Source: Squalus acanthias
Lineage: Eukaryota
Direction of reading: 5' to 3'
Length of the DNA: 64,000 bases
Assembly (NCBI GenBank): GCA_030390025.1
Contig: CM059452.1
Location: forward strand, 6,510,001 to 6,574,000
Part shown: positions 707-64,000 of the stretch, in pieces
How the letters are laid out: every line of letters starts with the position of its first letter
Position numbering within the stretch: position 1 is the first letter of the stretch
The notes under the pieces: generated by a model
What the model saw: only the letters and a program-made list of their open reading frames with translations
Databases searched by the model: none
What the model was told of the DNA's origin: nothing
Program-made: the position numbers and the translations under genes

Positions 707-833
707 AAAAATGTCAAACATTAATGAGCATAAATGTGAGATAAAAAGCAATTTCACGTTACTTTATGTTGAGAAAGTGTCAGTCAATATTGGTTGATGT
801 AAGGTGACCGGCGGTGGGAATCCGCGCTCTGTC

Positions 834-848
834 AGCGCCACCTAGTGG
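834..848 (-). promoter_or_regulatory. CTCF-type motif downstream of V RSS
   Basis: CCACTAGGTGGCGCT on the minus strand, about 43 bp beyond the nonamer. Confidence 0.65.
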
Positions 849-930
849 CTGGGTTTAAAGTATCTCCTTTGAGCTGATCTCACAGAACACGGTTTGTGTT
901 CGAGGTGTCCAGAGGCCCCTTCTCACTGTG

Positions 931-1225
931 GGCCTCAGTGCACAGTAGTACACGGCGCTGTCAGCGAGTTGCATCTCAGTGAAGTTGAAAACAGCGATAT
1001 TTCTGGACTTTTCCAGAATGACAAAGAAACGACCGTTAATTTCGCCCTTTCCAAAGGAATGTGCCTGAATTACAAAAGTCGGAGCCTTTTTCTGGCTCTG
1101 ACGGTAAAGCTGCAGGGAATAGCTCACTTCTGAAATCTGAATAGTTACAATTAATTCTCATCGACGTTCCTTCCGGATATTGGGCTTCTGTTGGCCACTG
1201 ATCGACGTAGTCTCCAGAACTCATC
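931..1225 (-). pseudogene. TCR alpha/delta V pseudogene (Leu-for-Trp family)
   Basis: SSGDYVDQWP..INCNYS, then frameshift into YSLQLYRQ..DSAVYYCALRP; RSS 891-930 CACAGTG-24-ACACAAACC; leader exon not located. Confidence 0.85.
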
Positions 1226-1329
1226 CTGCAGAAAACATTCCTGGTTACCGATGGAAACAGAGAGGAACACAGATCACACGTTTATCATTCTTTAAGAATA
1301 TATCTGTCTAACTCTCTGTGTATACACAG

Positions 1330-1690
1330 GGAGACAAAGAGACAGGAAGCGATAGCATTAGAATAATGGATAGACAGTGATAGATACACAGGTTGATAAA
1401 GAGAGAGATAGACAGAGGCATAGAGACGGACAGAAAGACAGAAAGACAGGCAGAGTGACAGACATAGAGACAGAGGGACCAACAGTAAAGCAGGCAGATA
1501 GACAGACAGTCAGATAGACGGACAGAGACAGACAGACAGACAGACAGACAGATAGCGAGACAGACAGGCAGACAGACAGACAATTCGATAAACAGGTGGA
1601 TAGACCTAGAGATCGTTGAGAGAGAGGGAGACCGAGAGAGAGAGAGAGACGCAAAGAGACAGAGAGAGAGAACGAGGCAGACCTAGAGAT
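1330..1690. repeat. (GACA)n/(GA)n simple repeat
   Basis: Visible low-complexity tract. Confidence 0.9.
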
Positions 1691-2429
1691 CGATGAATTG
1701 AAGACAGTTGTGTCAATAGTGGAATGGACAGACAGATGCATCAATAAATAAACCAACCGAATAACAACGGAGGAAAGGACCAAATAGCGAAAAGCCCAAA
1801 CTCCCTAATGGCCGCAGTCTCCCCACACCGGGAGCCCGCACTTCACCCGGTGCCTCCTCTCAGCTGCAGCTTTCGAACTGAAGGGGAGAATTTGAAATGT
1901 TTCCGTCAGCAAACGGAGTCCCCGTCATTTCCTGAATCGAACCAAGAGCCTGGTTTCAATGAGCTGCCGGTGATCATTGTCCCTCTCTGTGTTCATTATC
2001 ACAGCCCGCGGTCCTGGCGCACAGGCTCCGTGAGCTGTTCTGCTTTGCCCCGGACATCTTATCATCCGATCCCGGGAATGGGTGAGGATTCTGTCTGACC
2101 GTTACCGGTGTTTTGAAATTGATGCTCATGGTTAACGAGGAATCGATTTTCGGGTTTTCTTGTTGATGGAATATATTCCATTAGATAGAAATGAAAACCT
2201 GACACGATGTTGTCGGAATTCCCATGAACGCCAGTTTAATCTCGAACATTTTTGTCTGTATTTGTGTTTGTTTATCTGAGCAGATCGATATATGCATTTC
2301 TCTGTTTGTTTCCAGTGCTCCTAGTCAGGCTTGTAGTGGACACAGGAGGGCGCTCTCTGATCACTTGTGCAGATCATTCGTCTGAAACAACTTTCAGCTG
2401 AATATGCATCAATACCTTCACGCAGATCC

Positions 2430-2665
2430 ACCAGTTGTGTGTAGCGGGGTTTGCTTTGGCGCGTGGGTGCATGTATATGTCTGTGTTTAGGTCTGTATGT
2501 ATGTGTCTGTGTTTGTGTATAAATATCTATGAGCGCGTGTCTGTGTGTAGGTCATTGTTTGTGTATGTGCCTATGTGCATGCATATGTCTGTGTGTGTGT
2601 TTGTGTGTGTGTATGTCAGTGTGTATGTGTATGTGTGTGTGTGTATGCATGTGTCAGTGTTTCTG
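2430..2665. repeat. (TG)-rich simple repeat
   Basis: Visible low-complexity tract. Confidence 0.85.
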
Positions 2666-2707
2666 TTTCGAATACACTGTGTTTCTAATACGTGAAGCTT
2701 GTACTGT

Positions 2708-2722
2708 CCACAGGAGGGCGCT
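2708..2722 (+). promoter_or_regulatory. CTCF-type motif in V promoter (second copy near 2340-2354)
   Basis: CCACAGGAGGGCGCT about 200 bp upstream of the leader ATG; followed by CAGGAAGT (ETS) near 2760. Confidence 0.55.
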
Positions 2723-2906
2723 CTCTGATCACTTGCTAAAGGACATGATCCCCAACTACAGGAAGTGGCTGTATCGAGGGATACAAATGGCGGGGAGAAG
2801 AAATCCCAGCAGATCTGATGAGATCATCGCGCTGTTTCAGTTCCTCCCATTCCAGGCCTGGTACGTGCAGTGATCACAGTCTGTTTCTGGAGTTCAGACT
2901 GAAACC

Positions 2907-3379
2907 ATGGAGGTGAAACGTTGCCTGACTTTGGTTATTGTCTTGATCACAGATCTGTGATATTAGAATCTTCCTACAATATTCCCCAATCCTCATACGA
3001 TTTCCTATCTTCATCTCCGGGTGATTATTTCTCGGTCTAACCCGCTGCGTGTCCGCTGTTTATTTTCGGAGATGAGTGACAGAGACTCGATGTTCCAGTC
3101 AGAGCAAGGACTCCGATAAGAAGATGGTGCAGATGCAGCAATAACCTGCAGTTAAACAGTATCGGGTTCAGCTACAAACTATGGCCTGTTCTGGTATCGC
3201 CAGTGTCCTCACAAAACCCCTCAGTATCTGCTCAGAGCCGATAGTTATGGGAATAACGAGACAGCTCCGGGTTTTGAACACTTCAGCGGAAATCTCAACC
3301 AGACAAAAGGCACTTTTCACTTATCCATGAAAGGCTTGAAGGCCACAGACAGCGCCGTGTATTACTGTGCCCTGAGACC
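2907..3379 (+). pseudogene. TCR alpha/delta V pseudogene
   Basis: Leader MEVKRCLTLVIVLIT; V exon ..GLR*..ITCS*..LFWYRQ..DSAVYYCALRP with two TAA stops; splice sites damaged; RSS 3380-3417 CACAGTG-22-ATAAAAACA. Confidence 0.9.
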
Positions 3380-3993
3380 CACAGTGAATAAAGACCATTG
3401 AACCGAATATAAAAACAGGGCATAGGTCGGCATCAATGGTTGGGCTTCAGCAAAATACCAGGGACTAAATCCCAGAGAGTTTGTGATGAAAACGAATGGG
3501 AAAATAAAGCCTGATCCGTGCGGTTTTCTTCAGTTAAAGTCATTGTTGTCAGTGTTGGGATAAATTACATTTCTCTAACATTTTAATTCAGAGATTTCCA
3601 GCTGCCTGTTAGCACAGACCTGCAGATTTTTCGGATGAATAACAGGATCAATCTCTACAAGTAAAAGTCCTGGATAAGGATCAGATCCGTCAGGTGTCAT
3701 CATTCAAAAGTGATCTAATCTCAAATGAAAACGGAAATTTGAGGTAAGGTTACAGACGAATGGCAGACAGACCCGCCCCGAGCTGTTGGGGCCAATGACG
3801 GACTTTGACAGACTCACGAGTCTGAAACCAACAGACCGTTTGAAGTTTTCCCTTCACCTCACAAGACGTGAAGGTGAGGAACTGATCCCGTTGGAAGGTG
3901 CTGAAGGTTCATTAAAGGAAGGTTTATTCAGTCGTTTTCGTTTCAGCCGTGGGGGAATGTATTTCTGTTTAACTGCCCTGATTTAATTCTCAG

Positions 3994-4225
3994 GGAAATG
4001 TTGAGAGTGACGGGCTGATTCTGGGGGAGACGATGTTCAGTTGCACTGTAATTATACAGCTATAAGCACCAGCACTCCTTACCTATACTGGTACCGTCAG
4101 TATCCCAGCGGATCCATGGAGTATCTGCTGCAGATAAACAAATACAGCGAGAACGAAGGGACAGTTCCAGGGGTCCGTTTTTCAGCGAAGCTCAATGATT
4201 CGATCCGAACCGTCCCGCTGAATAT
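3994..4225 (+). pseudogene. 3'-truncated TCR V pseudogene
   Basis: LHCNYTAISTSTPYLYWYRQYPSG..RFSAKLNDSIRTVPLN, then similarity stops; no YYC and no RSS. Confidence 0.85.
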
Positions 4226-4564
4226 GAGAAAGGAATCACTGGACACCGGGGAAAGCGGGAGGGAAAACATACTGACTGGAACCTGTGCACACACAAAGAT
4301 CACGGGCATCCAGCATCAGTTGAACTGAAAGGAAATAAAAGTCAGTTTTTGTGAATGCGGATTGAGGGTTGTTGTTGTTTATTGTGGGGATCAGAAAGGG
4401 TCAAATGTCCCAGCGAAAACTGTGAATTTACAAGCTCCACTTCATCTTCTTTATGTTTCTGTCCCTGTAAGTTTTGATGTACAAGGCTCGACATTCACCA
4501 TCAGCATCACCGCAACACACCTCCCCAAAAGTGGACACTGGGAACTGGCCCATACACACACATA

Positions 4565-7415: not shown

Positions 7416-7872
7416 ATGCGGATATTCAGCGCCTGGGTTGTGTTTGGGGTGTTTATTGTCGGTAAGGATCAATCCAATCATGTCGTGTTCAAACTAAAGT
7501 GTTAATATTATTTAAGCTTTTAATACTCGGTCTTATCTTGCTCCTGAACACATGTTACAGATCAGAGTCATGGTGATTCTGTTACTCAGACCCAGACTTC
7601 AGTCAGCAGGGGAGAAGGTGAAGCGGTGACTATAAGATGCACCTACAGTACCACAGACAACAACTATTATTTATATTGGTACCGGGAACAACCAGAGAAG
7701 CAGCCCCAGTTTGTAATAAGGAGACGTTCTTGGGACACACAGGAACGGAGAGGAAATGGTTTCGGAATCCGTTTCTCTGCTCAGCTCCAGACCGCGACTA
7801 AATTCACCAGTTTAACCATCTCCGGGCTGCAGCTGACTGACGCTGCCGTGTATTACTGCGCTCTCTGGGACT
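7416..7872 (+). CDS. TCR delta/alpha V gene segment, intact (leader 7416-7461, V exon 7561-7872)
   Basis: MRIFSAWVVFGVFIV; GT-AG phase-1 intron; DSVTQTQ..IRCTYSTTDNNYYLYWYRE..DAAVYYCALWD. Confidence 0.93.
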
Positions 7873-7911: not shown

Positions 7912-8229
7912 GCCATTGGACGGTAGGGCGGAGCTCCTGTCTGTTGGGGTTGTTTAGAATCGCGGGCAGATGCAGCCACAATGTGCAGCGCGCTATCAGG
8001 CACTCAAACAAAAACCGAGAGGAAACCAAATTAACCTCGGATCAAATTGTCACCCAACTGTTTCCAGGAGCGGCCGAGAAAACAAACTGCAGAATCCAAT
8101 CGGCCCAAATGATCGATCAGAGAATGAACCGACCGGTTAAGCTGTCCTTTCTGCTTCTAATCCGCTGTTTTCCCTTTAAAATCGTGGATCGATGTTCGGA
8201 TTTGCTCAGAGAAAGTGGTCGCTTACACT

Positions 8230-10325: not shown

Positions 10326-10963
10326 TCTGAGTCTTTTGTATTCAGTCGGTCCTCTGACTATCTGGCACGGAACCAAGAACACACCATGTCCGTCCTTAGA
10401 GATTATTATTCGATTAATGTTTGTTCATTAGCTTCTTATCCTGTCCTGAAATTGAACATCTGGAACCTGCTTTTACTGCAGATTCTTACTTTATATATGG
10501 GCAAGTCTCTATAATTTTGAGAAATGTTCAATAAAGTTATTAGAATTATACGGGTCTTCCCCACCCGACCTATCGCTGTCTACACTGCAGACTGATATTT
10601 TAAACCAATCATTATTTGTCCGTTTGCCGTGCGTTATATCCGAAGCAGCGGTGCACCAGATACAGGCCACCCGCAGGTATGTTTATTCTCAATGGGACTG
10701 GCGTTTCCTGAAGATACAGAAATACACATCAACCATTTTTGATCTCATGCAGTTAATACAATAATCAGACGGAATCATTATTCGATGTGAGCGGTTTTAT
10801 ATGAGTTTGATGTGGATTCTGCTCGGGGGTCTGCGCGCACAGGAATGTAGTCACGTGTCAGTGTCTGACCCGCTGTGATAAACAGCCCACAATAGACAAC
10901 AGCTGTGACACAGAAACCTGCGGCAGTTATTGGACGAGGCTTTAGCTCGTTCCCATCACTGTG

Positions 10964-11267
10964 AGCCTCAGTGCACAGTAATACACCGCGGTGTCAGTCA
11001 GCCGCAGCCCCGAGATGGTCAATCGGTACAACTTGTCTGACTGCTGGACTGTATCATAAAACCGGCCTTGAGCGAAATCCGCCTGATATTCAGTACCGCC
11101 GCTCGTGTACCTCCGGACTGCAAACTCGGGCTGTCTGCCTGGGTATTGGCGGTACCAGAACAAGTAATAACCATCGCCAGGATAGGTGCAGGTTAAAGTG
11201 ACATCTTCTCCCTCCGTCTGTGTGAGCGAGGACTCTCGCTGAGTAACAGAATCTCCATCGCTCAGAT
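10964..11267 (-). pseudogene. Leaderless TCR V: open V exon and intact RSS, leader and promoter deleted
   Basis: DSVTQRESS..TCTYPGDGYYLFWYRQ..DTAVYYCALRL; acceptor intact; RSS 10925-10963; region equivalent to about 61390-62530 is absent. Confidence 0.8.
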
Positions 11268-11349
11268 CTGGAACACACGGTGAAAGAAAGCGGAAATCAT
11301 CGGTTAAAGGTTCAAACTGAACTAACTGACGGTGAAAATGCGCAGCGAG

Positions 11350-11628
11350 TTTTACATAAAATTAAATAGAATTTACTGCACAGAAAAAGGTCATTTGTCC
11401 CAACCAGTCTATGCCGTGTTTCTGCTCCACACGAGCCTCCACCCAGCCTTCTTCATCTCCCTCTATCAACATATCCTTCTATTCCTTTCTCCCTCGTGTA
11501 CTTATCCAACTTCCCCTTCAATGAATCTATGCTGTTCGCCTCAACTATTGCTTGTGGCAGCGGATTCTACATTATAACCTTGGTAAAGACGTTTCTCCAG
11601 AATTCACCATTGGATTTTTTGTGATTAT
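11350..11628 (-). mobile_element. CR1-like 3' fragment in the leader intron
   Basis: Counterpart of 62530-62810. Confidence 0.65.
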
Positions 11629-12350
11629 GTAGATGAAGATGTTCAGCGTGTTTCTCTTACTGTCAGTAATCAGGCTGAGGTTGTTGACGGGGCTCGGGTT
11701 TGATTAACCTTCTGCTGGGGACAAACAAGGGGAAGATTTCCTCTGCTCTCCCAAACACAGCGGGAAATCTCGTCCGATCGCTAGTTTAGTAGAATCGTCA
11801 TTCATTGTTTTAGAACGCGTTCACTCTGTCACTAGAAGTAGCGACCAGAGGAAATCTACCACTCAGAGCGGACACCTCGGTGTAGACACGAATATCACAG
11901 GAGAATGAGATTATTGCTCTCGGTGAGCCGTCACACACCGTCAGAAATTAAACCAACTCTCAGAAAAGGGAAGGTTTAGAGCCCTTTGAATATAATCCCA
12001 AATCTAAGCAAAGCTGCACACTTCTGTGCTGGTGCAAGGGGTGTGAAAATGAAACAAACACAGCGGCAGTGAGGAGGGAAACTTGAAATTGAACAGACAT
12101 TACACGGTACATTGGCCTATTAAAACTTCGCGGGCTTCCTCCTGTTCATCCCTCATTATAGAGTGAATGAAATCTAAAACCATACTCCTCTATTCAGAGC
12201 TGTTGGGAGCTGCCCTTGGGAATATTCTGTCCTGACAGTAACTGTCCTAATCAGACCATCACAGGCGGGTATTCCGGCCACACACTATTCTATTTACACA
12301 CGATGTGCTGCAGTATTTCTACAGGACGGGCACAGAGCTGTGCAGCTGTG

Positions 12351-12760
12351 GGTCTCAGAGCGCAGAAACTCTCAGTCGAACCGCGCCCTCCTCTGCGCTC
12401 AGCTCTGCTGTGAAACGGTCCTTGGCGAAGTCGGCTGGGAAGTTGCCGTATTCGGTGATAAGCAACACGTTTACCGGAGGCCGACCGGGAAGCTGCCGGT
12501 ACCAGGAAAGCTCAGGGTTTGTATCTGTTGTTGTAAAACTACAATTCAACCTCACCGTTTCTTCTTCACGCACCATCCTGTTCGAATAGTCTTGGTGCAC
12601 GGAATCACCGCCAACGCTATTGGCTGGAAGAGAAATTGATAATTTACAAATATCTGTCCCACTAACCGGACCTATTGGTGACTTTCCTGCTCGGATTCCA
12701 CATGTACTTACACAGCACAGAGAGCGCCAACACCACACTGAAATAAACAGGGAAACACAT
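12351..12760 (-). pseudogene. TCR V pseudogene (34-bp FR3 deletion removes YYC)
   Basis: Leader 12760-12712, V exon from 12623; lacks GGTTGG..TATTACTG relative to the paralog at 60237; RSS 12312-12350 with degraded nonamer AGAAATACT. Confidence 0.9.
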
Positions 12761-13384
12761 CGCTATCCGGGGGCCACAATATGAGCATCGCCCCTTTCTC
12801 TGCTGCAGCAAAAACTGCCACCAGTACAGGACCAGGCTGAGCTATTTAAACCTGTGACAAGCATAGAAAGGGAAGTGACCCTGCAACTATGTCACATCCG
12901 TTTGGGATAATTTCACACCATCAGGGAGTGGGGAGAATTGCTCTGGTCACTGTGGGTGCAGCAACATCCGAAATGTTTCAATGGAGATTCCTCTGGTCGG
13001 CATTTCTAGGGAAATCTTAAACAATTCCTTTTTTAACTACTTAATTGCAAAAAGAACGTATTTAAGATTAATTTAGAGAGAGACTAGAGGAAATCTTCGT
13101 GGAACGATTTAAGATTCGCTGCACTCAGTGAACAGAGACACTATGCCCCTTCCTTAGTTCATTGCATGTAGCAGTGACACTTTTCATAGACAGTGTTGAG
13201 CTGCCCTTAGCGTTACCCGGGGAAAATAAATGATGTTTTGATATAGCAAATAAAGACCGAGAGACTATGGAAATTCGCTCCACGGCGCCACCAATTGGAC
13301 GGAGCCAGAAACTACATGCTGACTGCTCTCCTTGGTCACTGTTACCGCCCAGTGTCTCTTTAACTCTCCTTCTGAGCTCATTTC

Positions 13385-13520
13385 ATAGACACATAGAATC
13401 TTACAGCACAGAAGGAGACCTTTGCCCGAACGTGCCTGTGCTGTTAGTACCACTGCCCTGATCTTTCCCCATAGCCCTAAAAATGTTTCCTTTTCAAGTA
13501 TATATCAAATTCCCTTTTGT
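13385..13520 (-). mobile_element. CR1-like 3' remnant (paralog near 59465-59605)
   Basis: CATAGAATCTTACAGCACAGAAGGAG tail motif. Confidence 0.55.
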
Positions 13521-13936
13521 AAATTCCTTTTTATAAGGAAGGCAGCATCCTACACAAGAGTTGCACCAATATATAGAGAGCTAATGTAGACCTTTGGTCC
13601 TCGGAAATTGCTCGGAGCGCCTCTGTGTGGGTGTGTCTCCCCCAATCTCTATGTAAAGATGAGAGATAATTATACAGAAAAATGAATAAAAGGAAGACAG
13701 AAGGAGGATGTAAAGTTTGGTTTGTAATATTGGAAAATAATGACCGGTTGAAGCTGTTCCCGGTAACCTCGCCACAAGCAGGCTGTTTAAAATCGATTCA
13801 ATATACCCATGTGAGTTTGTTGTAAAGTGTTTGTGCTACAGAGCAGCAGCAGGTTATTCGGAAAGAGACGGACAGAAGTTCCTCGCAGGTCTCTGTCTCT
13901 CTCTCACTGTGAAGCCTGAATTATCGCTTCTGTGAG

Positions 13937-13951
13937 AGCGCCCTCTGGTGA
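13937..13951 (-). promoter_or_regulatory. CTCF-type motif 25 bp downstream of RSS
   Basis: TCACCAGAGGGCGCT; same site at 21893 and 59029. Confidence 0.6.
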
Positions 13952-14016
13952 GCACTAACTGGAACTCTCAGTGTGGAGTTTTTGTACGGGATCCGCTATA
14001 TCTCTGCAGCAGTGTG

Positions 14017-14517
14017 GGTCTCATGGCACAGAAATACACGGCGGTGTCGGAGATCAGGGCGTTGCTGATCGTTAGCTCGGTAATCGTGGTAGTTTTATTA
14101 AATGTAGAAGAGAATCGGTCTATGTCAGTGAAGTCGCGGTTCCTGTTTACTATCCCTGCAATAATATAAACCACGTACTGTGGAGGCTGCCCGGGGTGTT
14201 GACTGTACCAGAACACTGTAGGGGTAGTAGTGCTTGTTTTCACGGTGCCGGTTAGTGTGACATTACTTTCCTCTTCAACTGTCATTTCAGGAACCGGCTG
14301 TTCCACTGTGTCTTGGCGGCTCCATTCTAAAATAACATAATAGTACATAGTCACCATCATCATCACCTCAATCAACATAACCATCATCATCACCACCATT
14401 TCACCAATAAGAACACCTGGGTTACAGCAGTCAGGGGAAGAATGCATTTTTACTGGGAAGGAAATACTTACTGACAAGTGATATAATGATGAGGAGCGGT
14501 GCGAGAGGGTTCCGCAT
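14017..14517 (-). CDS. TCR alpha/delta V gene segment, open but first Cys is Gly (leader 14517-14472, V exon 14326-14017)
   Basis: MRNPLAPLLIIISLV; DTVEQPVP..VTLTGTVKT..VFWYSQ..DTAVYFCAMRP; RSS 13977-14016 CACACTG-24-ACAAAAACT. Confidence 0.85.
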
Positions 14518-15368
14518 GACACTTCCTGGGTCTATAACTCTGCTGTCCGGGAAATCCTCTGTCGAAGCAGAAATAAAGACCACCGCGCCACTGCACTGCT
14601 GAAACAACCAATGCCAAACAGGGAACAGCGGCAGCAATCTCTCCAATAACACAGGGCAGGCAAGGCGGGTCAGAGCGAGAGCAGCAAACGGAAGCTGTGG
14701 GCGGGGCTGCCGCGGGCAGTGCCACCGCAAGATTTGTCTCTATAATTTCCAGTTGATAACGGCAACAATCATGTGACCACGGCGCCCTCTGACGGTGACT
14801 CTGAGAATTTCACACTGTCAGGATAATGGACAGAATAAAGTGTGAGTTTATCGATGGGGCAGTTTCCAGAGGACTGTTATTGGGAGACAATGTGTATTGT
14901 TTCAGACAATTCAGCTTTGTAAATAGGGCGAAGGGAAATGTGAATTAATTTAAAGGAAAGGACATTTTACTTTATTTCTGAATCTCTTTCTTTATGGCTT
15001 TCTCTCATGTTTTAGCTTTGTGTTTCTCACTCGTTATTTCTCACTTTCTTTCATTTCTCTTTCCATCTTTTCCTAATGTGCTGTCAGCTACACTCTCATT
15101 ATTTCACCGCTTTTTCTCTTTCTCTCTCTCATTCTCTCTTTGGTGTTTTCTCTTTCTTTTCCTCTCTCTATGTTTCCACCTCTCTTCATTTCTCACTTTC
15201 TTTAAATCTCTCTCTTCAATATATCATCACTATTCTGTGCTCATTCCCTCTGCCCTCCGATTATTATAACCGGGCCCCTCCCAATCCCGTTACTCCAAAC
15301 ACAGCAGAGCGGCGCTCCTCCTCGGGGCAGGTTTCTGTGCGGACTCTCCGCCTGTTTGTTACACTGTG

Positions 15369-15702
15369 GGCTCACGGCGCAGCGATAGGTGGCGCTGTCT
15401 GTCACTCGCGCGGCTCTCACAGTCAGGGCACTGAGTTTATTGCCTCCCCCGATTGAAGCAGTGATCCTCCCGTGTTGATCGGTCCCGCTTGTGGCCATCA
15501 CCAGGTGCTGGAGGGTCTGATTCGGGTTCTGTCTGTACCAGCGCTGGACGGTAAACGCAGCGGTAGCGGAGCAGTTGATCGACACGATTCCATCTTCAGG
15601 AACAACCACCCGCCGAGGGAGCTGCTTCACCTCATCTTCACCGCTCACATCCGTGCAGAGCAGAGTGTAAATCAGCAGGGAAATTCTGTAAATCCGGAGC
15701 AT
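15369..15702 (-). CDS. TCR alpha-type V gene segment with signal peptide in the V exon
   Basis: MLRIYRISLLIYTLLCTDVSG-EDEVKQ..INCSAT..RWYRQ..DSATYRCAVSP is uninterrupted; RSS 15330-15368 CACAGTG-23-ACAGAAACC. Confidence 0.8.
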
Positions 15703-15881
15703 TGTCGGATCAGCTGAAAAGGAGGCTGAAATAATTGTACAGAGTGGTCGGGTTTGAACCAGGACACAGATATTATATTCAGGATAATTAACAAGGAGAC
15801 ATATACCCGCTTCATGTGCAACTCAGAAGGTTTATTGCTTTCGAACTAACGAAACAAACTGTTTCCCGGAGTTTACCCATC

Positions 15882-16145
15882 CCGGGCCGCCCACACTCAG
15901 TGTTTCTGAGTGACACCAGCTCACACTGTCTCTGAGCTCACACCGGGTCGCTCACACTCAGTGTCTCACTGACACCAGCTCACACTGTCTCTGAGCTCAC
16001 ACCGGGCCGCCCACACTCAGTGTTTCTCACTGACATCAGCTCACACTGTCTCTGAGCTCACACCGGGCCGCTCACGCTCAGTGTTTCTCACTGACACCAG
16101 CTCACACTGTCTCTGAGCTCACACCGGGTCGCCCACACTCAGTAT
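15882..16145. repeat. 61-bp minisatellite (about 4 units)
   Basis: Units start at 15882, 15943, 16002, 16063, 16124; paralog at 56975-57177. Confidence 0.9.
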
Positions 16146-16169
16146 ATCTCACAAAGCTACTGCTTCCCT

Positions 16170-16775
16170 ATGTTGGTGTCTCCTTGCTTCACTCTTCTAA
16201 GTCACACCTTTATCGATCACCCTCTGTTGTTGCCTCTCTGCATCACTAACTGTACTCAGTCTCACCTTTATCTACCTCCTTTTCTTATCACTCACTGTAT
16301 TCAGTCACACCTTTATCTATCTCCCTCTCTTATCACTAACTGTACTCAGTCTCAATTTATCTATCTCCCTCTCTTATCACTCAATGTACTCAGTTATACC
16401 TTTGTTTATCTCCCTCTGTTATCACTCACTGTACGCAGTCACACCCTTATCTATCTCTCCCTGTCGGTGTCTCTCTGTATCACTGTACTCAATCACACCT
16501 TTATCAATCCCCCTCTGTTGGTGTCTCTCTGCATCACAATACCCGGTTACACCTTTATTTAACTTTTTTGTTGGTGTCTCTCTGTATCACTCACTGTACT
16601 CCGTCACGCCTTTATCAATCTCCTTCTGATGGGGTCTCTCTGTATAACTGTGCTCAGTCAAACATTTATCCAGCTCCCACTATTGGTGTCTCTGTATCAC
16701 TAAATTCTGTCACACATTTATCTATCTCCCTCTGCTGGTGTCTCCCTGTATTACTGTATTCAGTACTAAAATCCC
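16170..16775. repeat. Degenerate CT-rich minisatellite (about 45-60 bp units)
   Basis: ATCACTCACTGTACTCAGTCACACCTTTATCTATCTCCCT repeated; paralog at 56225-56950. Confidence 0.85.
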
Positions 16776-17310
16776 TCCCCTGAGAACGCAGGTTCCTTTT
16801 TTAACCCAGAGGATTGTTGGGACATGAAATTCCCAACCAAAAGCAGCGAGGAAGCCGAAACCATAATAACACTTAAAATGTAAATAGGTTAATATTTGAA
16901 AAATAAACTTACGTGTATATTGAAACAGGAGAATAATTGGACTAAATGAACAGTTTGCTCAGAGAACTGTCACAGGTTCAATGTGATTCTTCTGATTACA
17001 CGAGCCAGCTGGGCAAGATAATCGATATATTGATGACCGATTGAGTTTCCCCTGAAGCAGAAGATGTGAGACTGTCACTAACATTAACTCTAGACGATCT
17101 CGTATGACTGACAGCGAAACTGACGTGACAAAGCGTGGTCTTCTATCGCGATATCTCCTGTTTCCTGTACTATTGAAGGGGTCGCTATGAAGTTATACAG
17201 AAGCAGAGAGCGCGGTCTCATGGAGTCTGGGCAAGTTGCAGCCTCCAATAATCACCGCCAGCTTCAATACAGAGTGAGACGGAGCCTTGAGTAAAGAGTA
17301 TAAATCAGCC

Positions 17311-17794
17311 ATGGGGGATATTCACCTCTTCCTGTTCGTATTATCCTATGAGTATTACCAATCTGGTTTTAATCTTTCTGCTCTATAAACTGCTGTACCT
17401 CAATGTCAATGGGGTTGGGAGGAGACTCGTGTGGAGCATAAAGACAGGTGTAGACAAGTTGGGACGCACGACTGTTTCTGTAATGTACATTCTGTGTAAT
17501 TCTTAAATTGTGTCCAAAGATGCTCCAAGTTTGGCCCAGAATTCTCAGCCTGCCCGAGAGTTCGCAGTGGAAGAAAACCCCGATAGGATCCAGTGCGGGT
17601 TCAGCACCACAGACAACATCTGTTGGTACAGCCGACTGGAGAGCGAGGTCCCGGGATACATCCATTGTGGATTCAAAGGAGTGCGCCACCAAGGCCGGTT
17701 TAATATCCACACCGACCGGGATCAAAGTCTGAGCACACTCGGCAGCGGCCAGGCAGAGTTGGCGGATACAGGAACCTATTACTGTGCCGTGGGC
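17311..17794 (+). pseudogene. TCR alpha-type V: open exon, leader donor mutated (GT>AT)
   Basis: Leader MGDIHLFLFVLS followed by ATGAGT (paralog has GTGAGT); exon from 17520 ..RIQCGFSTTDNICWYS..YIHCGF..DTGTYYCAVG; RSS 17795-17833. Confidence 0.8.
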
Positions 17795-17974
17795 CACAGT
17801 GTGGGGGAAAGGTCCCGCTCTCCTACAATATCTCCTCTCTGAGCAAAGCCTTGGTAGATTGGGTGACAGTCAAATCGGTTCCGAAAACGAACAGTTTGGG
17901 CAAAGGGCGGTGGCACAGTCCGCAATTATATTGTTAAACTTGATGAGTTATGCCAGAAATGTTAAGCTTTCTTT

Positions 17975-18215
17975 TAACTTCACTCAGAGAGTCCTTTCAA
18001 TTCTTTGCCCCAGAGGGCTGTGAATGCTGAATCTTTGAGTATATTCAAGTATGAGATAGATAGACTTTTGGACTCTAGGGGAATCAAGGGATATGGGGAT
18101 AGTGCAGGAAAGTGGAGTTGAGGTCGATGATCAGCCATGATCTTATTGAATGGCGGAGCAGGCTTGAGGGGACGTATGGCCCACTCCTGCTCATATTTCT
18201 TATGTTCTTATGTTT
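17975..18215 (+). mobile_element. CR1 3' fragment
   Basis: 3' UTR and (TTCTTATG)n tail; paralog at 54785-55030. Confidence 0.8.
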
Positions 18216-18459
18216 TTAACTCTGTTGCATTATGGGTAACGAAATAGTAAATCAGATCTTTCGGTACTCAGCACATGGTGGGAACCGACCCTCATATTCA
18301 GCATTTGGAATAAATGTAGAATTTGCTGGGGCAAAATCTCTTCTACTGCCTATAGCAGAACCAGGGCTAGGAAACGGATATACTTAATTCTGTGGAAATG
18401 ACGCAACTTATTATGCCATCATAATACGGTAGATGAAAACCTCAATATTGTCCTCAAAT

Positions 18460-18572
18460 AGAAAGAAATACTTGCCTTTATACAGAGCTTTTCACCACCT
18501 CAGGACGTCCCAAAGCGCTTTACAGCCAACGAAGTAGTTTTGAATTGTAGTCACTGTTGTGATGTCGGAAAC
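18460..18572 (-). mobile_element. SINE/L2-type 3' tail remnant
   Basis: TTGCCTTTATACAGAGC..CCCAAAGCGCTTTACAGCC resembles L2-derived tails; recognised by eye only. Confidence 0.45.
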
Positions 18573-18777
18573 GTGGATTTATTGTGAAACGCGATGCGCG
18601 CCTATACAGGTCAGGTTTACAATATTACGGCTGATTGTTTGATTGGCTAGTCTGGCGCCAGTTCACTGGTTGAACAGAAGAGATGACTACAATTTAACGC
18701 TCTTTGCTTCTTTATTTATTTCTTTCTCTCCTTTATTTCTCCCTTTCTTCCTCTCTTTCTCTATTTTATCACTCTTT

Positions 18778-19693
18778 AGTTGGGAAAGCAAGTTGTGAAG
18801 AGGTCACAAAGAATCTCCAAAGGGATATAGGCAGGTTAAGTGATTGGGCAAAAATTTGGCAGACGGAGTTTAATGTGGGAAAATATGAGGTTATCCACTT
18901 TGGTAGGAAAAATAAAAAGCAAATTATTATTTAAATGGAGAGAGATTACAAAATGCTGCAGTACAGAGGGATCTGGGGTTCCTTGTACATGAAACACAAA
19001 AAGTTAGCAGGCAGGTACAGCAAGTAATTAGGAAGGCAAATGGAATGATGGCCTTCATTACAAGGGGGTGGAGTATAAAAGTAGGGAAGTCTTGCTACAA
19101 CTGTAAAGGGCATTGGTGAGACCACACCTGGAGTACTGCGTACAGTTTTGGTCTCCTTATTTAAGGAAGGATATACTTGCATTGGTGGCAGTTCAGAGAA
19201 TGCTCACTAGGTTGATTACTGAGATGAAGGGGTTGTCTTATGAAGAAAGGTTGAGCAGGTTGGGCCTATACTTATTGGAGTTTAGAAGAATGAGTGGTGA
19301 TCTTATTGAAACATATAAGATACTGAGGGGGCTTGACAAGGTAGATGCAGAGAGGATGTTTCCCCTCGTGGGGGAATCTAGAACTCGGGGGCATAGTTTC
19401 AGAATAAGGGGTTGCCCATTTAAAACGGAGATGAGAAGTAATTTGTTCTCTCAGAGGGTCGTGAATCTTTGGAATTCTCTACCCCAGAGGGCTCTGGAGG
19501 CTGACTCATTGAATATATTTAAGGTGGAGATAGACTGATATTTTGAACGATAAGGGAGTCAAGGGTTATGGGGAGCGGGCAGGGAAGTGGAGTTGACGCC
19601 AAGATCAGATCAGCCATCATCTTATTGAATGGCGGAGCAGGCTCGAGGGGCAGAATGACCTACTCCTGCTCCTATTTCTTATGTTCTTATGTT
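18778..19693 (+). mobile_element. CR1 LINE, 5'-truncated
   Basis: LVRPHLEYCVQFWSPYLRKD..FSQRVVNLWNSLP; (TTCTTATG)n tail. Confidence 0.92.
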
Positions 19694-20097: not shown

Positions 20098-20342
20098 CAC
20101 AGCGTTACAAACACTGACTGAACGCGTACAATAACAACCCCCGCCCCTCTACTGAGCTCGCGGTTCCATCGCCACCGAAAATTTTATCAACACGTATGTC
20201 TATTTTTAGCCATTAATCTGATGGTTTCTCTCGCTGTTTCTTTGTCTCCCTGTGATTACATAGAGATATAGACCCATATATCCTTAAAGACAGAGAAACG
20301 CGTGATCTGTCCATTACTTGGATAACCAGGAATGGTTTCTTG

Positions 20343-20617
20343 GGACTGAGTTCCGGACAATCCGTCGAGCAGTGGCCAACTGGAAGGAACCTCGATGGGC
20401 ATTGATTGTAATTATTCAACCTCCGAACTACTACCTGGAGCTTTATCTTGAGAACCAGAACAAGACTCCCACTCGGATAATTCGAAGACATTCCTTTGGA
20501 AAGGACGAAGTTAACGGCCATTTCTCCGTCATTCTGAACAAGCCGAAAATTTTCTGTTTTCACCCTCACTCAGCTGCAGCTCGCTGACAGCGCCGTGTAT
20601 TACTGTGCACTGAGGCC
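20343..20617 (+). pseudogene. TCR V pseudogene (same family as 931-1225)
   Basis: Indels, damaged acceptor, no leader; ends DSAVYYCALRP; RSS 20618-20656 with degenerate nonamer GCAGTATCC. Confidence 0.85.
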
Positions 20618-20698
20618 CACAGTGAGAAGGGCCTCGGGACGCCTCGTGCAGTATCCGTGTTCTGTGAGATCAGCTCAAAGGAGATACTTTGAACCCGG

Positions 20699-20713
20699 CC
20701 ACCAGGTGGCGCT
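20699..20713 (+). promoter_or_regulatory. CTCF-type motif downstream of RSS
   Basis: CCACCAGGTGGCGCT; same motif on the minus strand at 26673-26687. Confidence 0.65.
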
Positions 20714-21358
20714 GACAGAGCGCGGAGTCCCACCGACGGGCACCTTACATCAACCAATACTGACTGACTCTTCCTCAATACAAATTGAGGTGAAATTTCT
20801 TTTTATTTAATATTTCTGCTCATTAATGTTATCCAATCCCTTGCAGTTGAATAATTTCACAAGTTAGTTAAGTGTAAATAATCTGTGCGCCTGGAGAACG
20901 TTTGGATTGATGGCAGTTTCTTTCTATTTCCCACCGCTATTTCAGCCCCTGGTTTTAACTCACTTCGCTGATGAAGATTTCAGTAACTTTTGAATAATAT
21001 AACAAACCTACAATTCCTGTCACGAGCATGCTTGCTCCGAATTTGTAATGAATGTGAAACTAACGCAGCCCTTATAGAGAGGCAGAGTTATATCGTTTCC
21101 GAAGGGTGCATTATTATTGAGTTCAGTTCCTCACAGGTGGATCCTACGTGTGACAACACCGCCCGCGGCAGCCCCGCCCACAGCTTCCGTTTGCTGCTCT
21201 AGCTCTGACCCGCCTTGCCTGCCCTGTGTTATTGGAGAGATTGCTGCCGCTGTTCTCTGATTGGCATTGGTTGGATCAGCAGTGCAGTGGGGCGGGGATC
21301 TGTATTTCTGCTCCGACAGAGGATTTCCCGGACTGCAGAGTTACAGACTCGGAGCAAC

Positions 21359-24551: not shown

Positions 24552-24882
24552 ATATCCCTCCATGGAGATAAAACACGCACTGTGGAGGCTTCCCGAGGTG
24601 CTGAATGTACCAGAACACATAAGGGTTATGATCTCTTGTTTTCAAGGTGCAGTTAAGTGTGAGAATACTTTCCTCTTCAACCAACATTTCAGGAACCGGC
24701 GGTTCCACTGTGTCTTGGTGGCTCCATTCTAACATAAAATTATTGTAATAGTCATCATCATCATTTTACCAATAATACCATCTGGGTTACAGCAGTCAGG
24801 GGGAGAATGCATTTTTACTAGGATGGAAAAATTTGCTGAATAGTGATATAATGATGAGGAGCGGTGAGAGTCGGTACCACAT
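24552..24882 (-). pseudogene. TCR V pseudogene truncated by L2 (family of 21359)
   Basis: Leader MWYRLSPLLIIISLF with donor GCAAAT; exon from 24728 DTVEPPVP..LNCTLK..VFWYIQ, ending at CDR2. Confidence 0.88.
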
Positions 24883-25133: not shown

Positions 25134-26281
25134 TTAGGGCTCCTGGGATTGGTCGTAATATACTATCATGGATTGAGGATTGGTTAACGGACTGAAGGCA
25201 GAGTGCAGGAATAAACGGATCATTTTCATTTTGGCAGGCTGTAACTAGTGGGATACCGCACGGATCTGTGCTTGGGACTCAGCTATTCACAATCTACATC
25301 AATGATTTGGATGAGGGGACCAAATGAAATATTTCCAAGTTTGCTGATGATACAAAGCTGGGTGGGAATGTAAGTTGTGAGGAGGATTCAAGCAGGCTTC
25401 AAGGGGATATAGACAGGCTAAGTGAGTGGGTAAGAACATGGCAAATGGAATATAATGTGGAGAAATGTGAAGTTATTCACTTTTATAGGAAAAATGGAAA
25501 AGAAGAGATTGTTTTAAATGGTGAGAGATTGGGAAATGTTGGTGTTCAGAGGGACCTGGGTGTCCTTGTACACGAATCACTGAAAGTTAACATGCAGGTA
25601 CAGCAAGCAATTAGGAAAGCAAATGGTATGTTGGCCTTTATTACAAGAGGATTTGAGTATAAGAGTAAAGACGTCCTACTGCAATTATATAGGGCCTTGG
25701 TGAGACCACACCTGGAGTATTGTGTACAGTTTTGGCTGCCTTACCTAAGGAAGGATATACTTGCCATCGAGGGAGTGCAACGAAGGTTCACCAGACTGGT
25801 TCTTGGGATGGTGAGATTGCCGTCTGAGGAGAGATTGAATAGACTAGGATTATATTCTCTATAATTTAGAGCAATGAGAGGTGATGTCATTGAAACATAC
25901 AAAATTATTACAGGGCTTGACAGGGTAGATGCAGGGAGGACGTTTCCCCTGGCTGTGGAGTCTAGAACCAGGGGTCACAGTCTCAGAATAAGGGGTCGAC
26001 AATTTAGGACTGAGATGAGGAGAAATTTCTTCTCTCAGAGGGTGGTGAATCTTTGGAATTCTCTACCCCAGAGGGCCGTGGAGACTCAGTCGTTGATTAT
26101 ATTCAAGACAGAGATCGATAGATTTTTGAATATTAAGGGAATCAAGGGATTTGAGGGTAGTGCAGGAAAGTCGAGATGAGGTAGAAGATCAGCCTTGATC
26201 TTATTGAATGGCGGGGTAGGCTCGAGGGCCCGAATGGCCTACTCTTGCTCCTATTTCTTAAGTTCTTACGTACTTATGTTC
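25134..26281 (+). mobile_element. CR1 LINE, 5'-truncated
   Basis: ORFs 25445 and 25874 match the CR1 RT C-terminus; 3' UTR and tail present. Confidence 0.92.
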
Positions 26282-26729
26282 CCTTCGGAAAGTATAGAAC
26301 TCTGCATCTCTATAAGGGCTGCGCTACTTTCACATTCATTAAAATTCGGAGCAAGCAGGCTCACCACAGGGATTGCAGAATTATTATATTAATCCATAGT
26401 TACCGAATTCTTCATCAGTGAAGTAGGTTAAAACCAAGAGCTGAAGCTAGCGGTGGAAATAGAACAAAACGGCAACCGATCCGAATGTTCTGGAAGCGCA
26501 CAGCTGATTACTACTTAACTAACTTGTGAAATTATTAAACTGTAAGGGTTTGTCTAACATTAATGAGCAGAAATATGAGATAACAATAAACTTCACCTTA
26601 ATTTATGCTGAGAAAGTGTCAGTCAGTATTGGTTGATGTAAAGTGACCGGCGCTGTGAATCCGCGCTCTGTCAGCGCCACCTGGTGGGCGGGTTTAAAGT
26701 ATCTCCTTTGAGCTGATCTCACAGAACAC

Positions 26730-26768
26730 GGTTACTGTATGAGGTGTCCCGAGGCCCTCCTCACTGAG
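26730..26768 (-). pseudogene. Orphan RSS relic of a V whose exon is deleted
   Basis: CTCAGTG-23-ACAGTAACC; flanks match 720-930 and 1330 onward, V exon missing. Confidence 0.75.
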
Positions 26769-26769
26769 G

Positions 26770-27130
26770 AGACAAAGAAAAAGAGAGATAAAGCAATAGA
26801 TTAATGACTGTATAAAGATAGATAGAAAGTTGCATAAACAGAGATAGCGAAACAGAGAGAGAAGGACAGAGAGCCAGAGACAGAGAGACAGACAGAATGA
26901 AGGAGAGAGAGCGAGAGAGAGAGACCGAAAGAGAGAGAGAGAGCGAGCGAGAGACAGATAGAGAGAGAGACANNNNNNNNNNNNNNNNNNNNNNNNNNNN
27001 NNNNNNNNNNNNNNNNNNNNNNNNNNNNNNNNNNNNNNNNNNNNNNNNNNNNNNNNNNNNNNNNNNNNNNNNNNNNNNNNNNNNNNNNNNNNNNNNNNNN
27101 NNNNNTGAGAGACAGATAGACAGACAACTA
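26770..27130. repeat. (GA/GACA)n tract containing an assembly gap (N 26973-27105)
   Basis: Visible. Confidence 0.9.
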
Positions 27131-27997
27131 GACTGATCTAGAGATCGATGAATGGAAGACAGTTGTATCAATCGTGGAATGGACAGACAGACACAAATGT
27201 ATAAATAAATAAACCAACCAAATAACAACCGTTGTTAGACCCCAAAGAACGAAAACCCCAAACTCCATAATGGCCGCAGTCTCCCCACACCGGGAGCCCA
27301 CACTTCACCCGATGCCTCCTCTCAGCTGCAGCTTTCGGACTGAAGGGGAAAATTTGAAGTGCTTCTCTCAGCACACGGAGTCCCCGTCATTTCCTGAATC
27401 AAACCAAGAGCCTGGTTTCAATGAGCTGCCGGTGATCATTGTCGCTGTCTGTGTTCATCATCACTGCCCGCGGCCCCGGCACACAGGCTCCGTGTGCTGT
27501 TCTGCTTTGTCCCAGACATCTGATCATCCGATCCCGGGAATGGGTGAGGATTCTGTCTGACCGTTATCGGCCTCACCCACAATACCTGGACACATCCCGG
27601 AACTGTTCGGAAGTTCGATTGACGTTTATTCTTCAAAAGGACTCTCATTTTAACCTTAATTAGAAATCGATGCTCACGCTTAATGAGGAATCGGTTTTAG
27701 GGTTTGCTTGTTGACGAAAAATGTTTAATTTGATAGAACTAGAACTTTTAACACGATGTTGTGGCAATGTCACTACCTCAGAATATTCCGTTAAGGACCG
27801 TTTACTCTCCAAAGTTTTAGTCTGTGTGTGTGTGTTTATCTCTCTGTGCTTGTTTCTGTGTATCTGTGTAGCCAATGCTCTATGTCAGGCGTGTGGTGAC
27901 CACAGCCCTAATAAGTTGTTAAAGCTCTTTCATCTTAAACAACTCAGCTGAATATACACCAATAAACTCCATAATATATGAACCATTGTGTGTATCT

Positions 27998-28090
27998 GGC
28001 TCACCATCACCTTCTCAATGGTAATTAGGGATGGGCAATAAATGCTGGCGTTGCCAGCGACGTCCACATCCCATGAATGAATTAAAAAAT
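27998..28090 (+). mobile_element. LINE 3' tail (same family as 9415)
   Basis: GGGATGGGCAATAAATGCTGG..CACATCCCATGAATGAATTAAAAAA. Confidence 0.7.
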
Positions 28091-28839
28091 GCCTGTATGT
28101 ATTATTATGTGTGTATATGCCTCTGTGCGTGCAAATGCCTGTGGGTATATGACTGTGTGTGCATTGTTGTGTGTATAAACCTGTGTGTATATTTCTATGT
28201 GTGTGTATGTCTGTGTGTATTTATGTTCATATGTAAGTGTGTGTGTTTCCAAAGTACTCGTACTCGTACATGCTCGTACTGTCCACCGGAGGGCGCTCTC
28301 TCATCACTTGAAAAAGATAATAATTCCCATCTGCAGGAAGTGGCTACTTAGAGAAATACGAATGGGCGGGGAAAAGAAATTCCAGTCGATCTGATCAGAT
28401 CCCCGCGTTGTTTCAGTTTCATCCATTTCAGTATAGGCAGTAATCAGAGTCTCTTGTTTGTGGAGTTCAGGCTGGAAAATACAGCCTGATCCGATCGGGA
28501 TCCTCCAGTTAAAGTTATTGCTGTCATTGTTGGGATAAGCGAAATTTCTCAACCATTTTAACCCAGGGTCAAATTCAGACATTTCCACCCCAGTGTTAGC
28601 ACAGAGCTGACTCTGGGATGAATAACAGGATCGATCTCTACAAATAAATGTCCTGGGTGTCGTCAAGATCCGCCAGGTCACATTTTAAAAGCTATCTCAC
28701 TGGTGCCGAGGGCTGTCCACTTATCATGGCCCTCGTAGTCTTGAGGCTTCGACTAGTAATGGAGCTCATTGACTGTGGTGGGAACTGAATCATACCGAGG
28801 ATTGAATTGATTTAGATAATTTTTCTCTTTTCACCTTAA

Positions 28840-29265: not shown

Positions 29266-29704
29266 ATGTGCTCCCCATGTTCCTTATTGGTAATAATGAT
29301 CGTGCTGCCCGGTGAGTCTATCTGTAAATGGTCAGTGCGTGTTCCATGGGCTATATTCACTCCAGACGTTTGACACATTCTTTATTTTGTTACAGGAACG
29401 AGTGGCAAAGACTCAGTGTCCCAGGATCCGCCTGAATTAATGGTTCAGGAAGGACAAACCATTATACTAAACTGCAGTTACTCGGCAGCGTACACTGGCT
29501 CAACTCTCTTCTGGTACAGCCAGTATCCCGGGGAAGCTCCCAGATATTTACTGAAGCGATATAGCTCGGTGTCCGGAGACAAGTCTCCAGATACCCCAGA
29601 CAGGTTCTCTGCTGATTTGGACCAAGACAAGAAAACGGTTCCTTTAAATATCTCCGGTGCTCTTGTCTCTGACTCTGCCGTATATTTCTGTGCGCTGAAC
29701 GCCC
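29266..29704 (+). CDS. TCR alpha/delta V gene segment, intact (leader 29266-29311, V exon 29396-29704)
   Basis: MCSPCSLLVIMIVLP; DSVSQDPP..LNCSYS..LFWYSQ..DSAVYFCALNAP; RSS 29705-29743 CACACTG-23-ACAAAAACC. Confidence 0.93.
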
Positions 29705-60236: not shown

Positions 60237-60680
60237 ATGTGTTTCCCTGTTTATTTCAGTGTGGTGTTGGTGCTCTCTGTGCTGTGTAAGTACCTGTGGA
60301 ATGCGAGTACAAAACACACCAATAGGTCCGGTTAGAGGGGCGGATATTTATAAATGATCAATTTCTCTTCCAGCTAACAGCGTTGGCGGCGATTCCGTGC
60401 ACCAAGACTATTCGACCAGGACGGTGCGGGAAGGAGAAACGGTGACGTTGAATTGTAGTTTTACAACAACAGATACAAACCCTCGACTTTTCTGGTACCG
60501 GCAAATTTCCGGTCGGCCTCCGGTGAACGTGTTGCTTATCACCATATACGGCAGCTTCCCAGCCGACTTCGCCAAGGACCGTTTCACAGCAGAGCTGAGC
60601 GCAGAAGAGGGCGCGGTTCGGCTGACAGTTTCTGGGTTGGAGCTGTCAGACGGCGCCGTGTATTACTGCGCTCTGAGACC
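60237..60680 (+). CDS. TCR alpha/delta V gene segment, intact (leader 60237-60285, V exon 60374-60680)
   Basis: MCFPVYFSVVLVLSVL; DSVHQDY..LNCSFT..LFWYRQ..DGAVYYCALRP; RSS 60681-60719 CACAGCT-23-ACAAAAACT. Confidence 0.92.
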
Positions 60681-63200: not shown

Positions 63201-63902
63201 CACAGTGATGGGAACGAGCTAAAGCCTCGTCCAATAACTGCCGCAGGTTTCTGTGTCACAGCTGCTGCCTGTTGTGGGCTGTTTATCACAGCGGGTCAGA
63301 CACTGACACGTGACTACATTCCTGTGCGCACAGACCCCGAGCAGAATCCACATCAAACTCAGATAAAACCGTTCACATCGAATACTGATTCCGTCTGATT
63401 ATTGTATTAACTGTGTGAGGTCAGCATTGGCTGCTGTTTATTTGTGTATCTTTGAGAAACTCCAGTCCCATTGAGAATAAACACACCTGCGGGTGGCCTG
63501 TATCTGGTGCACCGCTGCTTCGGATATAACGCACGGCAAAGGGACAAATAATGATTGGTTTGAAATATCAGTCTACAGTGTAGACAGAGATAGGTCGGGT
63601 GGGGAAGATCCCAATAATTCTAATAACGTTATTAAAACTTTCTCAATATTATAAAGACTTGCCCATATATAAAGTAAGAATCTGCAGTAAAAGCAGGTTC
63701 CAGAAGGTCAAATTCAGAACAGGATAAGAAGCTAATGAACAAACATTAATCGAATAATAATCTCTAAGGACGGACATGGTGTGTACTTGGCTCCGTGCCA
63801 GATAGTCAGAGGACCGGCTGAATACAAAAGACTAACTGAGAAGGTATCAGAAGAGATGAAATAGTGAGATACAAACCGTGAAATGAAAAAAAATAATTAA
63901 AG

Positions 63903-64000
63903 ATTAAACTGGACCCTGTCTCTGTTTGTATTACACTAGGCCCTGTCTCAGTTATTAATGCACGAGACCCTGTCTCTATTTATATTGCTCTAGGTCCTGT
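63903..64000 (-). repeat. Start of a second 27-bp satellite array in opposite orientation
   Basis: GACCCTGTCTCTGTTTGTATTACACTAG is the reverse complement of the satellite unit; runs off the window. Confidence 0.9.

Follow-up and report, generated by a model that had tools for sequence, protein, structure and literature searches.

One copy of a duplicated block within an array of antigen-receptor V genes has lost a V pseudogene through a real, constitutional deletion that left a dead orphan 23-RSS behind. The original prediction had explained the loss as an imprecise signal joint made by RAG in the germline, and the two breaks do lie in or at heptamers. We lean towards an ordinary germline deletion of the V pseudogene as the cause. 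A RAG-initiated germline event (a trimmed signal joint or a cut at a single RSS), the scar of which was inherited, is a tentative alternative that we hold with clearly lower confidence.

A V gene missing from one of three paralogous copies

The window (the whole 64-kb stretch of DNA analyzed, to which all counts and enrichment figures given here are confined) carries antigen-receptor V genes arrayed in both orientations. Nine V queries from the window, run in tblastn, returned 22 V genes or remnants outside the masked satellite. The array has V-set exons with 23-spacer RSSs; spacers were 22-24 nt long in all 19 of the 19 V-associated RSSs scored. The top atlas matches of an intact neighbouring V (29395-29700) were TCR alpha/delta V clusters, and by taxon the atlas placed the window in Chordata. 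The family of the deleted gene is Pfam V-set (E=5.5e-06 for paralog A); its own atlas matches were mixed V-set, and a PDB search returned only generic V domains. The window also holds an inverted duplication of about 8.5 kb with several V genes and about 90% identity (10330-18880 versus 63833-54119) and, inside the V cluster at about 33980-54010, a 20-kb tandem array with a unit of about 27 bp by self-alignment offsets. The repeat of this array begins again at the window end (63900-64000).

As predicted, the block at 26560-28690 parallels the one at 720-3720. By BLAST, block A (712-3716) is collinear with block C (26551-28697) in four segments of 68-89% identity, and the far end of block C has an additional 73% segment against block A. 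Paralog B (20183-21106) is inverted, and the flanks of the first V are common to B, A and C. Past the RSS, this flank is identical at 193 of 216 positions between C and A, at 187 of 211 between C and B and at 184 of 210 between A and B; the three copies are therefore about equally distant. In block C the conserved flank (26551-26729) is about 89% identical to A and B by alignment and presumably includes a CTCF-like motif from 26674. Motifs of this CTCF-like pattern are found at 835, 13938, 20699, 21897, 26674, 59033 and other positions, a few tens of bases past several V RSSs. In mammalian V arrays, CTCF-like motifs lie a few tens of bases beyond V RSSs. Both block copies also share a 96-codon open frame with a hydrophobic stretch (1808-2098 and 27270-27560, plus strand; about 88% DNA identity), which had no match in a Pfam search.

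About 400 bp that are kept in two paralogs (929-1329 in A; 20250-20620 in B) are absent from block C at 26766|26769. The far flank resumes at 26768-26769, where it matches A from 1330 (59 of 74 positions) and B (43 of 51). For each paralog this match was better than 1000 of 1000 dinucleotide shuffles, and A and B were the best matches in the window. Breakpoints were taken from local alignments and from enumeration of joins; MAFFT and a global aligner misplaced or split the 400-bp gap. The far flank (26769-26860, from alignment and a read contig described below) is the 5' flank of the lost V gene; it is paralogous to A 1330-1420 and B 20160-20249 and enters a GA-rich repeat. A scaffold gap of 133 N (26973-27105) lies in this repeat about 200 bp from the junction, and the collinearity with A continues past it.

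The original prediction had a V exon of about 400 bp missing. The size of the deletion was right, but the lost piece is a whole V gene, with about 40 bp of 5' flank, a leader-like exon and a mini-intron (23 nt in paralog A) in addition to the V exon. In paralog A of the deleted segment (929-1329, minus strand; from alignment and Pfam V-set), the V exon (1225-931) is frameshifted and the leader-like exon (1288-1249) has an in-frame stop. The ATG at 1288 and the donor at 1248 were assigned by sequence pattern alone because no full-length relative was found (a protein search for longer relatives of the deleted V family gave 14 candidates, of which none passed). The heptamer of paralog A, CACAGTG (924-930, minus strand), is followed by a 24-nt spacer and a nonamer with one mismatch. 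Paralog B (20250-20624, plus strand; heptamer 20618-20624) is a V pseudogene with stops and frameshifts, and both surviving paralogs are thus pseudogenes. The leader-like exon and V exon of paralog A are only 23 nt apart (1288-1225, minus strand) and a similar remnant is present in B, a distance that appears too short for splicing and suggests that decay preceded the split of the copies.

At the junction itself, an independent scan for orphan RSSs recovered a minus-strand 23-RSS at 26768 whose heptamer has one mismatch and whose nonamer has two. Its heptamer remnant CTCAGTG (26762-26768) coincides with the deletion junction and is the consensus heptamer changed at position 2, with loss of the essential CAC. 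The 23-nt spacer (26739-26761, minus strand) is paralogous to those of A and B, and the nonamer ACAGTAACC (26730-26738, minus strand) accounts for the two other mismatches. An RSS that lacks the CAC should be inert.

The junction was compared with four of the 11 listed public runs: X1 (organism A), X2 (another sample of organism A), X6 (organism B) and X7 (organism C). Among the other listed runs, X10 and X11 had small shares. Contig 8 of run X1 spans 26715-26860 with no differences, reaching 52 nt past the junction in one direction and more than 90 in the other. Because this contig bridges the junction without differences at a word depth of 128, compared with 54 and 77 in the flanking contigs, the junction is constitutional and did not arise from the N gap. 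Another X1 contig, over 26281-26475, had one substitution and one gap relative to the window. X1 is the best-matching run and may be the assembly's own source; its tissue is not on record. The junction was thus covered in one of the four runs compared and, as a filter removes some records, the end of cover at 26780 in X2, X6 and X7 (at about 26690 in X7) says nothing on presence, absence or polymorphism of the junction in these samples. In the left flank, X6 differed from the window at 4 of 278 positions and X7 at 3 of 189. Position 26506 is G in the window and C in X2, X6 and X7, with no such contig in X1, and may represent an allele or an assembly error. Two X6 contigs match through the nonamer (26738), continue with about 6 nt of spacer-like end and then, over 30 letters judged by eye, with the end of a V (the Cys codon plus about 11 nt). 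This suggests a paralog that lacks the heptamer and about 17 nt of spacer, near the V border, and it may be the kind of second case that a RAG origin predicts. An exact-pattern scan of metagenome contigs gave no matches.

Anatomy of the junction and the far-side heptamer

Read on the V-sense strand, the junction consists of a left anchor shared with the paralogs, an 8-nt core (CCTCAGTG) and the spacer; the letters agree with those originally reported. A perfect signal joint would be 14 nt long. When all joins of the two parental ends were enumerated, the perfect signal joint was 6 edits away from the observed core, in agreement with the original description of a signal joint minus about 6 nt. 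Seven parses that are not signal joints were 1 edit from the junction, with A or B as the parent. These place the V-side break at -1 to +3 nt from the border of the bona fide RSS heptamer and keep 0-4 of the 7 bases of the cryptic heptamer. Some of them join within a 1-2 nt C run and leave the V heptamer complete but for one substituted base; two others are in-register hybrids of both heptamers in which one base was inserted. The core can also result from a trimmed signal joint, and the sequence by itself does not decide between them. The 14-nt head-to-head fusion of two heptamers is not seen, as the core keeps one heptamer's worth; this lowers the signal-joint reading without excluding it, because trimmed joints exist. 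Nor is the junction a V-D or V-J coding joint, since the V is gone and no J-like FGxG motif is found at or near it.

The microhomology at the junction amounts to a 1-2 nt C run or to an imperfect repeat of 5/7 to 6/8. Within 4 nt of the breaks, the best microhomology was 3-4 nt at the junctions; this is non-discriminating, as random pairs reach at least 3 nt in 82% of cases and at least 4 in 41%. Microhomology, which the original prediction had named as an explanation that would count against RAG, is thus compatible with the data but not demonstrated by them.

On the far side, the break falls inside an outward-facing cryptic heptamer CACAGGG that is present in both of the two paralogs, where it had been predicted (1325-1331, plus strand, in A; 20254-20248, minus strand, in B). 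The site was also correctly said to have no good nonamer. The best nonamer at a spacing of 12 ± 1 has 6 of 9 mismatches in both A and B, compared with 0-4 mismatches in the nonamers of all 19 real V RSSs, and the pair departs from the 12/23 rule, by which a 23-RSS is partnered with a 12-RSS that has a nonamer. Among 1624 CAC sites, the CACAGGG heptamer ranked 125; the nonamers ranked 870 and 1036, and the sites overall 310 and 407. A comparable outward heptamer lies 300-520 nt upstream of 14 of the 19 window V genes. As in off-target RAG joins, a CAC motif lies within about 10 bp of the break, for which the chance with any CAC is about 14% for 8 positions. The orientation is not convergent, and the cryptic site and the V RSS point apart.

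The heptamer is close to a palindrome, so an outward cryptic heptamer matches it as a direct repeat at 5 of 7 positions, and 357 of 1800 7-mers that are direct repeats at 5/7 or better also read as outward cryptic heptamers. This effect raises the chance of the far-side match from 5.5% to 7.4% (loose) or 20% (strict), so that palindromy explains the coincidence only weakly to modestly.

Chance, controls and the origin of the deletion

The coincidence of breaks and heptamers was evaluated against a null in which all 30-800-nt deletions that overlap a V exon at the 19 RSSs were taken as uniform. Under this null, 0.73% of deletions end within 2 nt of the heptamer on the V side and 0.04% coincide on both sides, where the start must lie in an outward heptamer that has no more than 2 mismatches. 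For five V-damaging events, the expectation per window is 3.6% for the V side and about 0.2% for both sides. A loose homology-guided null gave 0.27% and the strict null about 0.7% in all; none of these figures takes into account that the site was chosen, for its coincidence, from a very large scan.

The five events, a count that excludes the smaller indels inside A and B, provide controls within the window. The second is another whole-V deletion in block C, which was not part of the original prediction: 598 bp (A 2901-3498, plus strand, a V pseudogene with its RSS at 3380 included) are absent at 28473|28474. Its junction (28465-28485, plus strand) served as the internal control, and its far break is about 119 nt past the heptamer start. 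With two whole-V deletions, block C is a V-less duplicate. Both deletions begin just upstream of a leader ATG (about 7 and 40 nt). The third event, a 34-bp deletion in the 3' end of a V (12362|12363 versus 60635-60668), stops 12 nt short of the heptamer; it has a CTG repeat at its ends and removed the region of the second Cys codon. The remaining two are Vs truncated at the 3' end well before the RSS position (4020-4250, plus strand, and 24553-24723, minus strand), the latter of which abuts a LINE-like fragment as judged by eye. Both ends are resolved in three of the five. The original prediction had held that a lack of heptamer enrichment at breakpoints would speak against it, and this was borne out by half: one event of the five is sited at a heptamer, against expectations of 3.6% and 0.2%.

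Another orphan RSS, at 7977-8016 (plus strand), has the heptamer CACAATG, a 24-nt spacer and a perfect nonamer, and lies about 100 bp past the RSS of the V at 7557-7871. No V stands in front of it and no parent paralog was found within the window. A weak reading of an opposite-strand RSS overlaps its heptamer. Positions 7977-7985 were considered as a second signal joint and rejected: the two heptamer readings overlap and their order is wrong.

On balance, we judge that the deletion probably arose by an ordinary germline event. Replication slippage, or end joining after a break that was not made by RAG, would have removed a degenerate V of TCR alpha/delta type from one block copy. The join could have formed through the 1-2 nt C run or through the imperfect direct repeat that the V heptamer (CACAGTG) forms with the far site, which reads CCCTGTG on the V-sense strand. 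A repeat-guided join would leave one hybrid heptamer. This agrees with the junction except for a single added or altered base, which is unremarkable given the paralog divergence of 11-12%. Loss of the gene was probably neutral; this neutrality, the repair pathway and the pseudogene state of the ancestor are inferred, while the deletion, its extent, the junction sequence and the second, off-heptamer deletion were observed directly. The preference for an ordinary deletion comes from several sides. Seven simple parses are 1 edit from the junction compared with 6 for a signal joint, and the far partner has no nonamer of the quality found in every real V RSS. The neighbouring V and RSS of block C were also lost away from heptamers, as were the sequences removed in the 34-bp deletion and the two truncations. 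Outward sites lie upstream of most Vs, a share of the direct repeats of the heptamer double as cryptic heptamers, and both surviving paralogs are pseudogenes. In addition, off-target signal ends at mouse Tcrd are mostly perfect and mostly joined to convergent CACs (85% and 69%; PMC4995090), and the site here is divergent and trimmed.

One argument against an ordinary deletion is the placement of both ends on heptamers, with a probability of 0.04% per event, 0.2% over five or 0.27% under the loose homology-guided null, which the palindrome argument raises only modestly. Moreover, in one parse every base of the V heptamer is kept except for a single substitution that came later, which is what a RAG signal end would look like; the best microhomology of 3-4 nt does not discriminate the junctions from random pairs; and the loose end in X6, by eye, suggests a second loss near the heptamer border of a paralog. 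Roughly, ordinary deletion would give such a pattern in about 0.04-0.15% of events, and a RAG event of this geometry would perhaps give so trimmed a joint 10-25% of the time. We infer a share of 0.05-0.5% for off-target back-to-back germline RAG joins among V-damaging events, because off-targets at mouse Tcrd make up about 1% of junctions and are mostly convergent (PMC4995090). From these estimates combined, the span for RAG is about 10-50%. The junction is not filed as a signal joint because it has neither the 14-nt fusion nor a 12/23 pair, though it may have arisen like one.

Of the two routes by which RAG could have acted, a trimmed germline signal joint fits better, although we regard it as unlikely. 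RAG in a germ cell or early embryo would have paired the V 23-RSS back to back with the nonamer-less CACAGGG 400 bp upstream. The V gene would have been excised as a coding circle and the two signal ends joined on the chromosome; the joining step, or a second cut at the joint, would have cost about 6 nt. The original prediction is supported in part: both breaks are in or at heptamers, which is rare by the null (about 0.2% per such window), and at least one run shows the junction to be constitutional. Germline RAG joining is known in shark Ig loci (PMC2193156, PMC2193153), imprecise signal joints make up as much as 24% at TCR beta and delta, with exonucleolytic loss at delta (PMC2192893), and RSS ends lost 1-12 nt in many insertions described in PMC2118463, which also reports that signal joints can be re-cut. 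Bare CAC motifs serve as off-targets, and the back-to-back chromosomal signal joints of Trdd1-Trdd2 are made from two real RSSs (PMC4995090). Against this route, the core is 8 nt long, six edits from a perfect joint, with 0-4 of 7 cryptic-heptamer bases left and no 12-spacer nonamer at the far site; four of the five events in the window lie off heptamers, with no apparent enrichment there; and off-target use is mainly convergent and perfect (PMC4995090). In the open-access literature searched, we found no report of a germline signal joint or other signal-side germline scar at off-target sites, or of germline RAG products in a TCR locus of a shark.

A germline RAG cut at the V 23-RSS only is quite improbable. 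The signal end would have stayed intact, the coding side would have been resected by about 400 nt and rejoined at the 1-2 nt C microhomology, and one later substitution would have inactivated the heptamer; the far CACAGGG would be incidental or used as homology. Consistent with such a cut, there are 1-edit parses that retain the V heptamer in full, the orphan scan returns a 23-RSS with a single mismatch in its heptamer, and coincidence on the V side, taken by itself, has a chance of 3.6% across five events. Lymphocytes are known to undergo breaks at single RSSs, which occur with excised circles (PMC6509286), and joins to cryptic RSSs can show resection and use of microhomology, mainly when 53BP1 is absent (PMC13196745). 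A single cut nevertheless requires extensive resection on one side only, and the far heptamer would then be a coincidence of 5-20%. The known route depends on a signal circle excised within the same cell (PMC6509286), and by sequence the outcome is indistinguishable from that of an ordinary deletion.

Finally, a misassembly close to the N gap, or a lymphocyte's somatic rearrangement that entered the assembly, is very improbable: the gap in the GA repeat is close by and the bridging run may be the assembly's own source, but the depth of the bridging contig is not below that of its flanks, as it would be for a rare somatic clone, collinearity with A continues past the gap, and the RSS remnant differs from both paralogs along the entire flank.

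Comparison with known germline and somatic RAG products

V genes turn over by birth and death through duplication, decay and deletion. The window resembles such turnover in its duplicated blocks, pseudogenes and whole or partial deletions, with five of the 22 V genes and remnants, or their copies, damaged. Unlike ordinary turnover, which does not predict it, one breakpoint coincides with a RAG cut site. If the deletion is ordinary, it is one more lost pseudogene in a V array and of little importance. Germline TCR V deletions appear in the literature; passages of PMC12227049 and PMC5931798 added nothing further on germline RAG products.

The germline-joined Ig genes of the nurse shark are the closest precedent for an inherited change at an antigen-receptor RSS. 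Lee et al. (2000, PMC2193156) suggest five independent germline joining events among the NS4 light chains, one of them within 7 Myr. As described there, these are expressed coding joints in Ig clusters, between bona fide 12/23 partners and with trimming and P nucleotides. The junction described here differs in that the coding part was lost and the signal side kept, there is no J or D partner, and the array is of TCR type. In channel catfish, rearrangement products have also been claimed in the germline of the TCR (alpha/beta), but these are V-J coding joints ascribed to transposition from T cells and not to RAG in germ cells (PMC6170632).

Among somatic products, the deletional joints of Trdd1-12RSS and Trdd2-23RSS share the back-to-back geometry, with the coding segment excised and the signal ends left on the chromosome, and the off-target joins at Tcrd share a bare CAC motif at the break (Zhao et al. 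2016, PMC4995090). In that study the back-to-back joints use two real RSSs and the off-target ends are mostly perfect and convergent. The loss of bases recalls the imprecise signal joints of TCR delta (Candeias et al. 1996, PMC2192893), which are a minority (up to 24%, N additions included) and are likewise somatic and formed between bona fide RSSs.

If the deletion was made by RAG, germline RAG activity would reach beyond Ig clusters to a TCR locus, and beyond coding joints to signal-side scars at off-target sites. In addition to making germline-joined Ig genes, RAG would then trim TCR V repertoires on an evolutionary time scale, and orphan RSSs in such loci would preserve a record of past off-target RAG cutting in germ cells. 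The orphan RSS at 7977 and the X6 paralog that seems to lack its heptamer might be further cases. Lewis and Wu proposed that germline RAG reshapes Ig and TCR loci (PMC2193153), and counts of orphan-RSS breakpoints across shark genomes make this proposal testable. They describe a germline hybrid joint between D segments of the horned shark, which this junction would resemble, if RAG acted here, as a product other than a coding joint that was fixed in the germline. As they describe it (Lewis and Wu 2000, PMC2193153), where signal joints are termed exact fusions, the hybrid joint arose by inversion between two bona fide RSSs, whereas the V gene studied here was removed by a deletion between one bona fide RSS and a site that has no nonamer.
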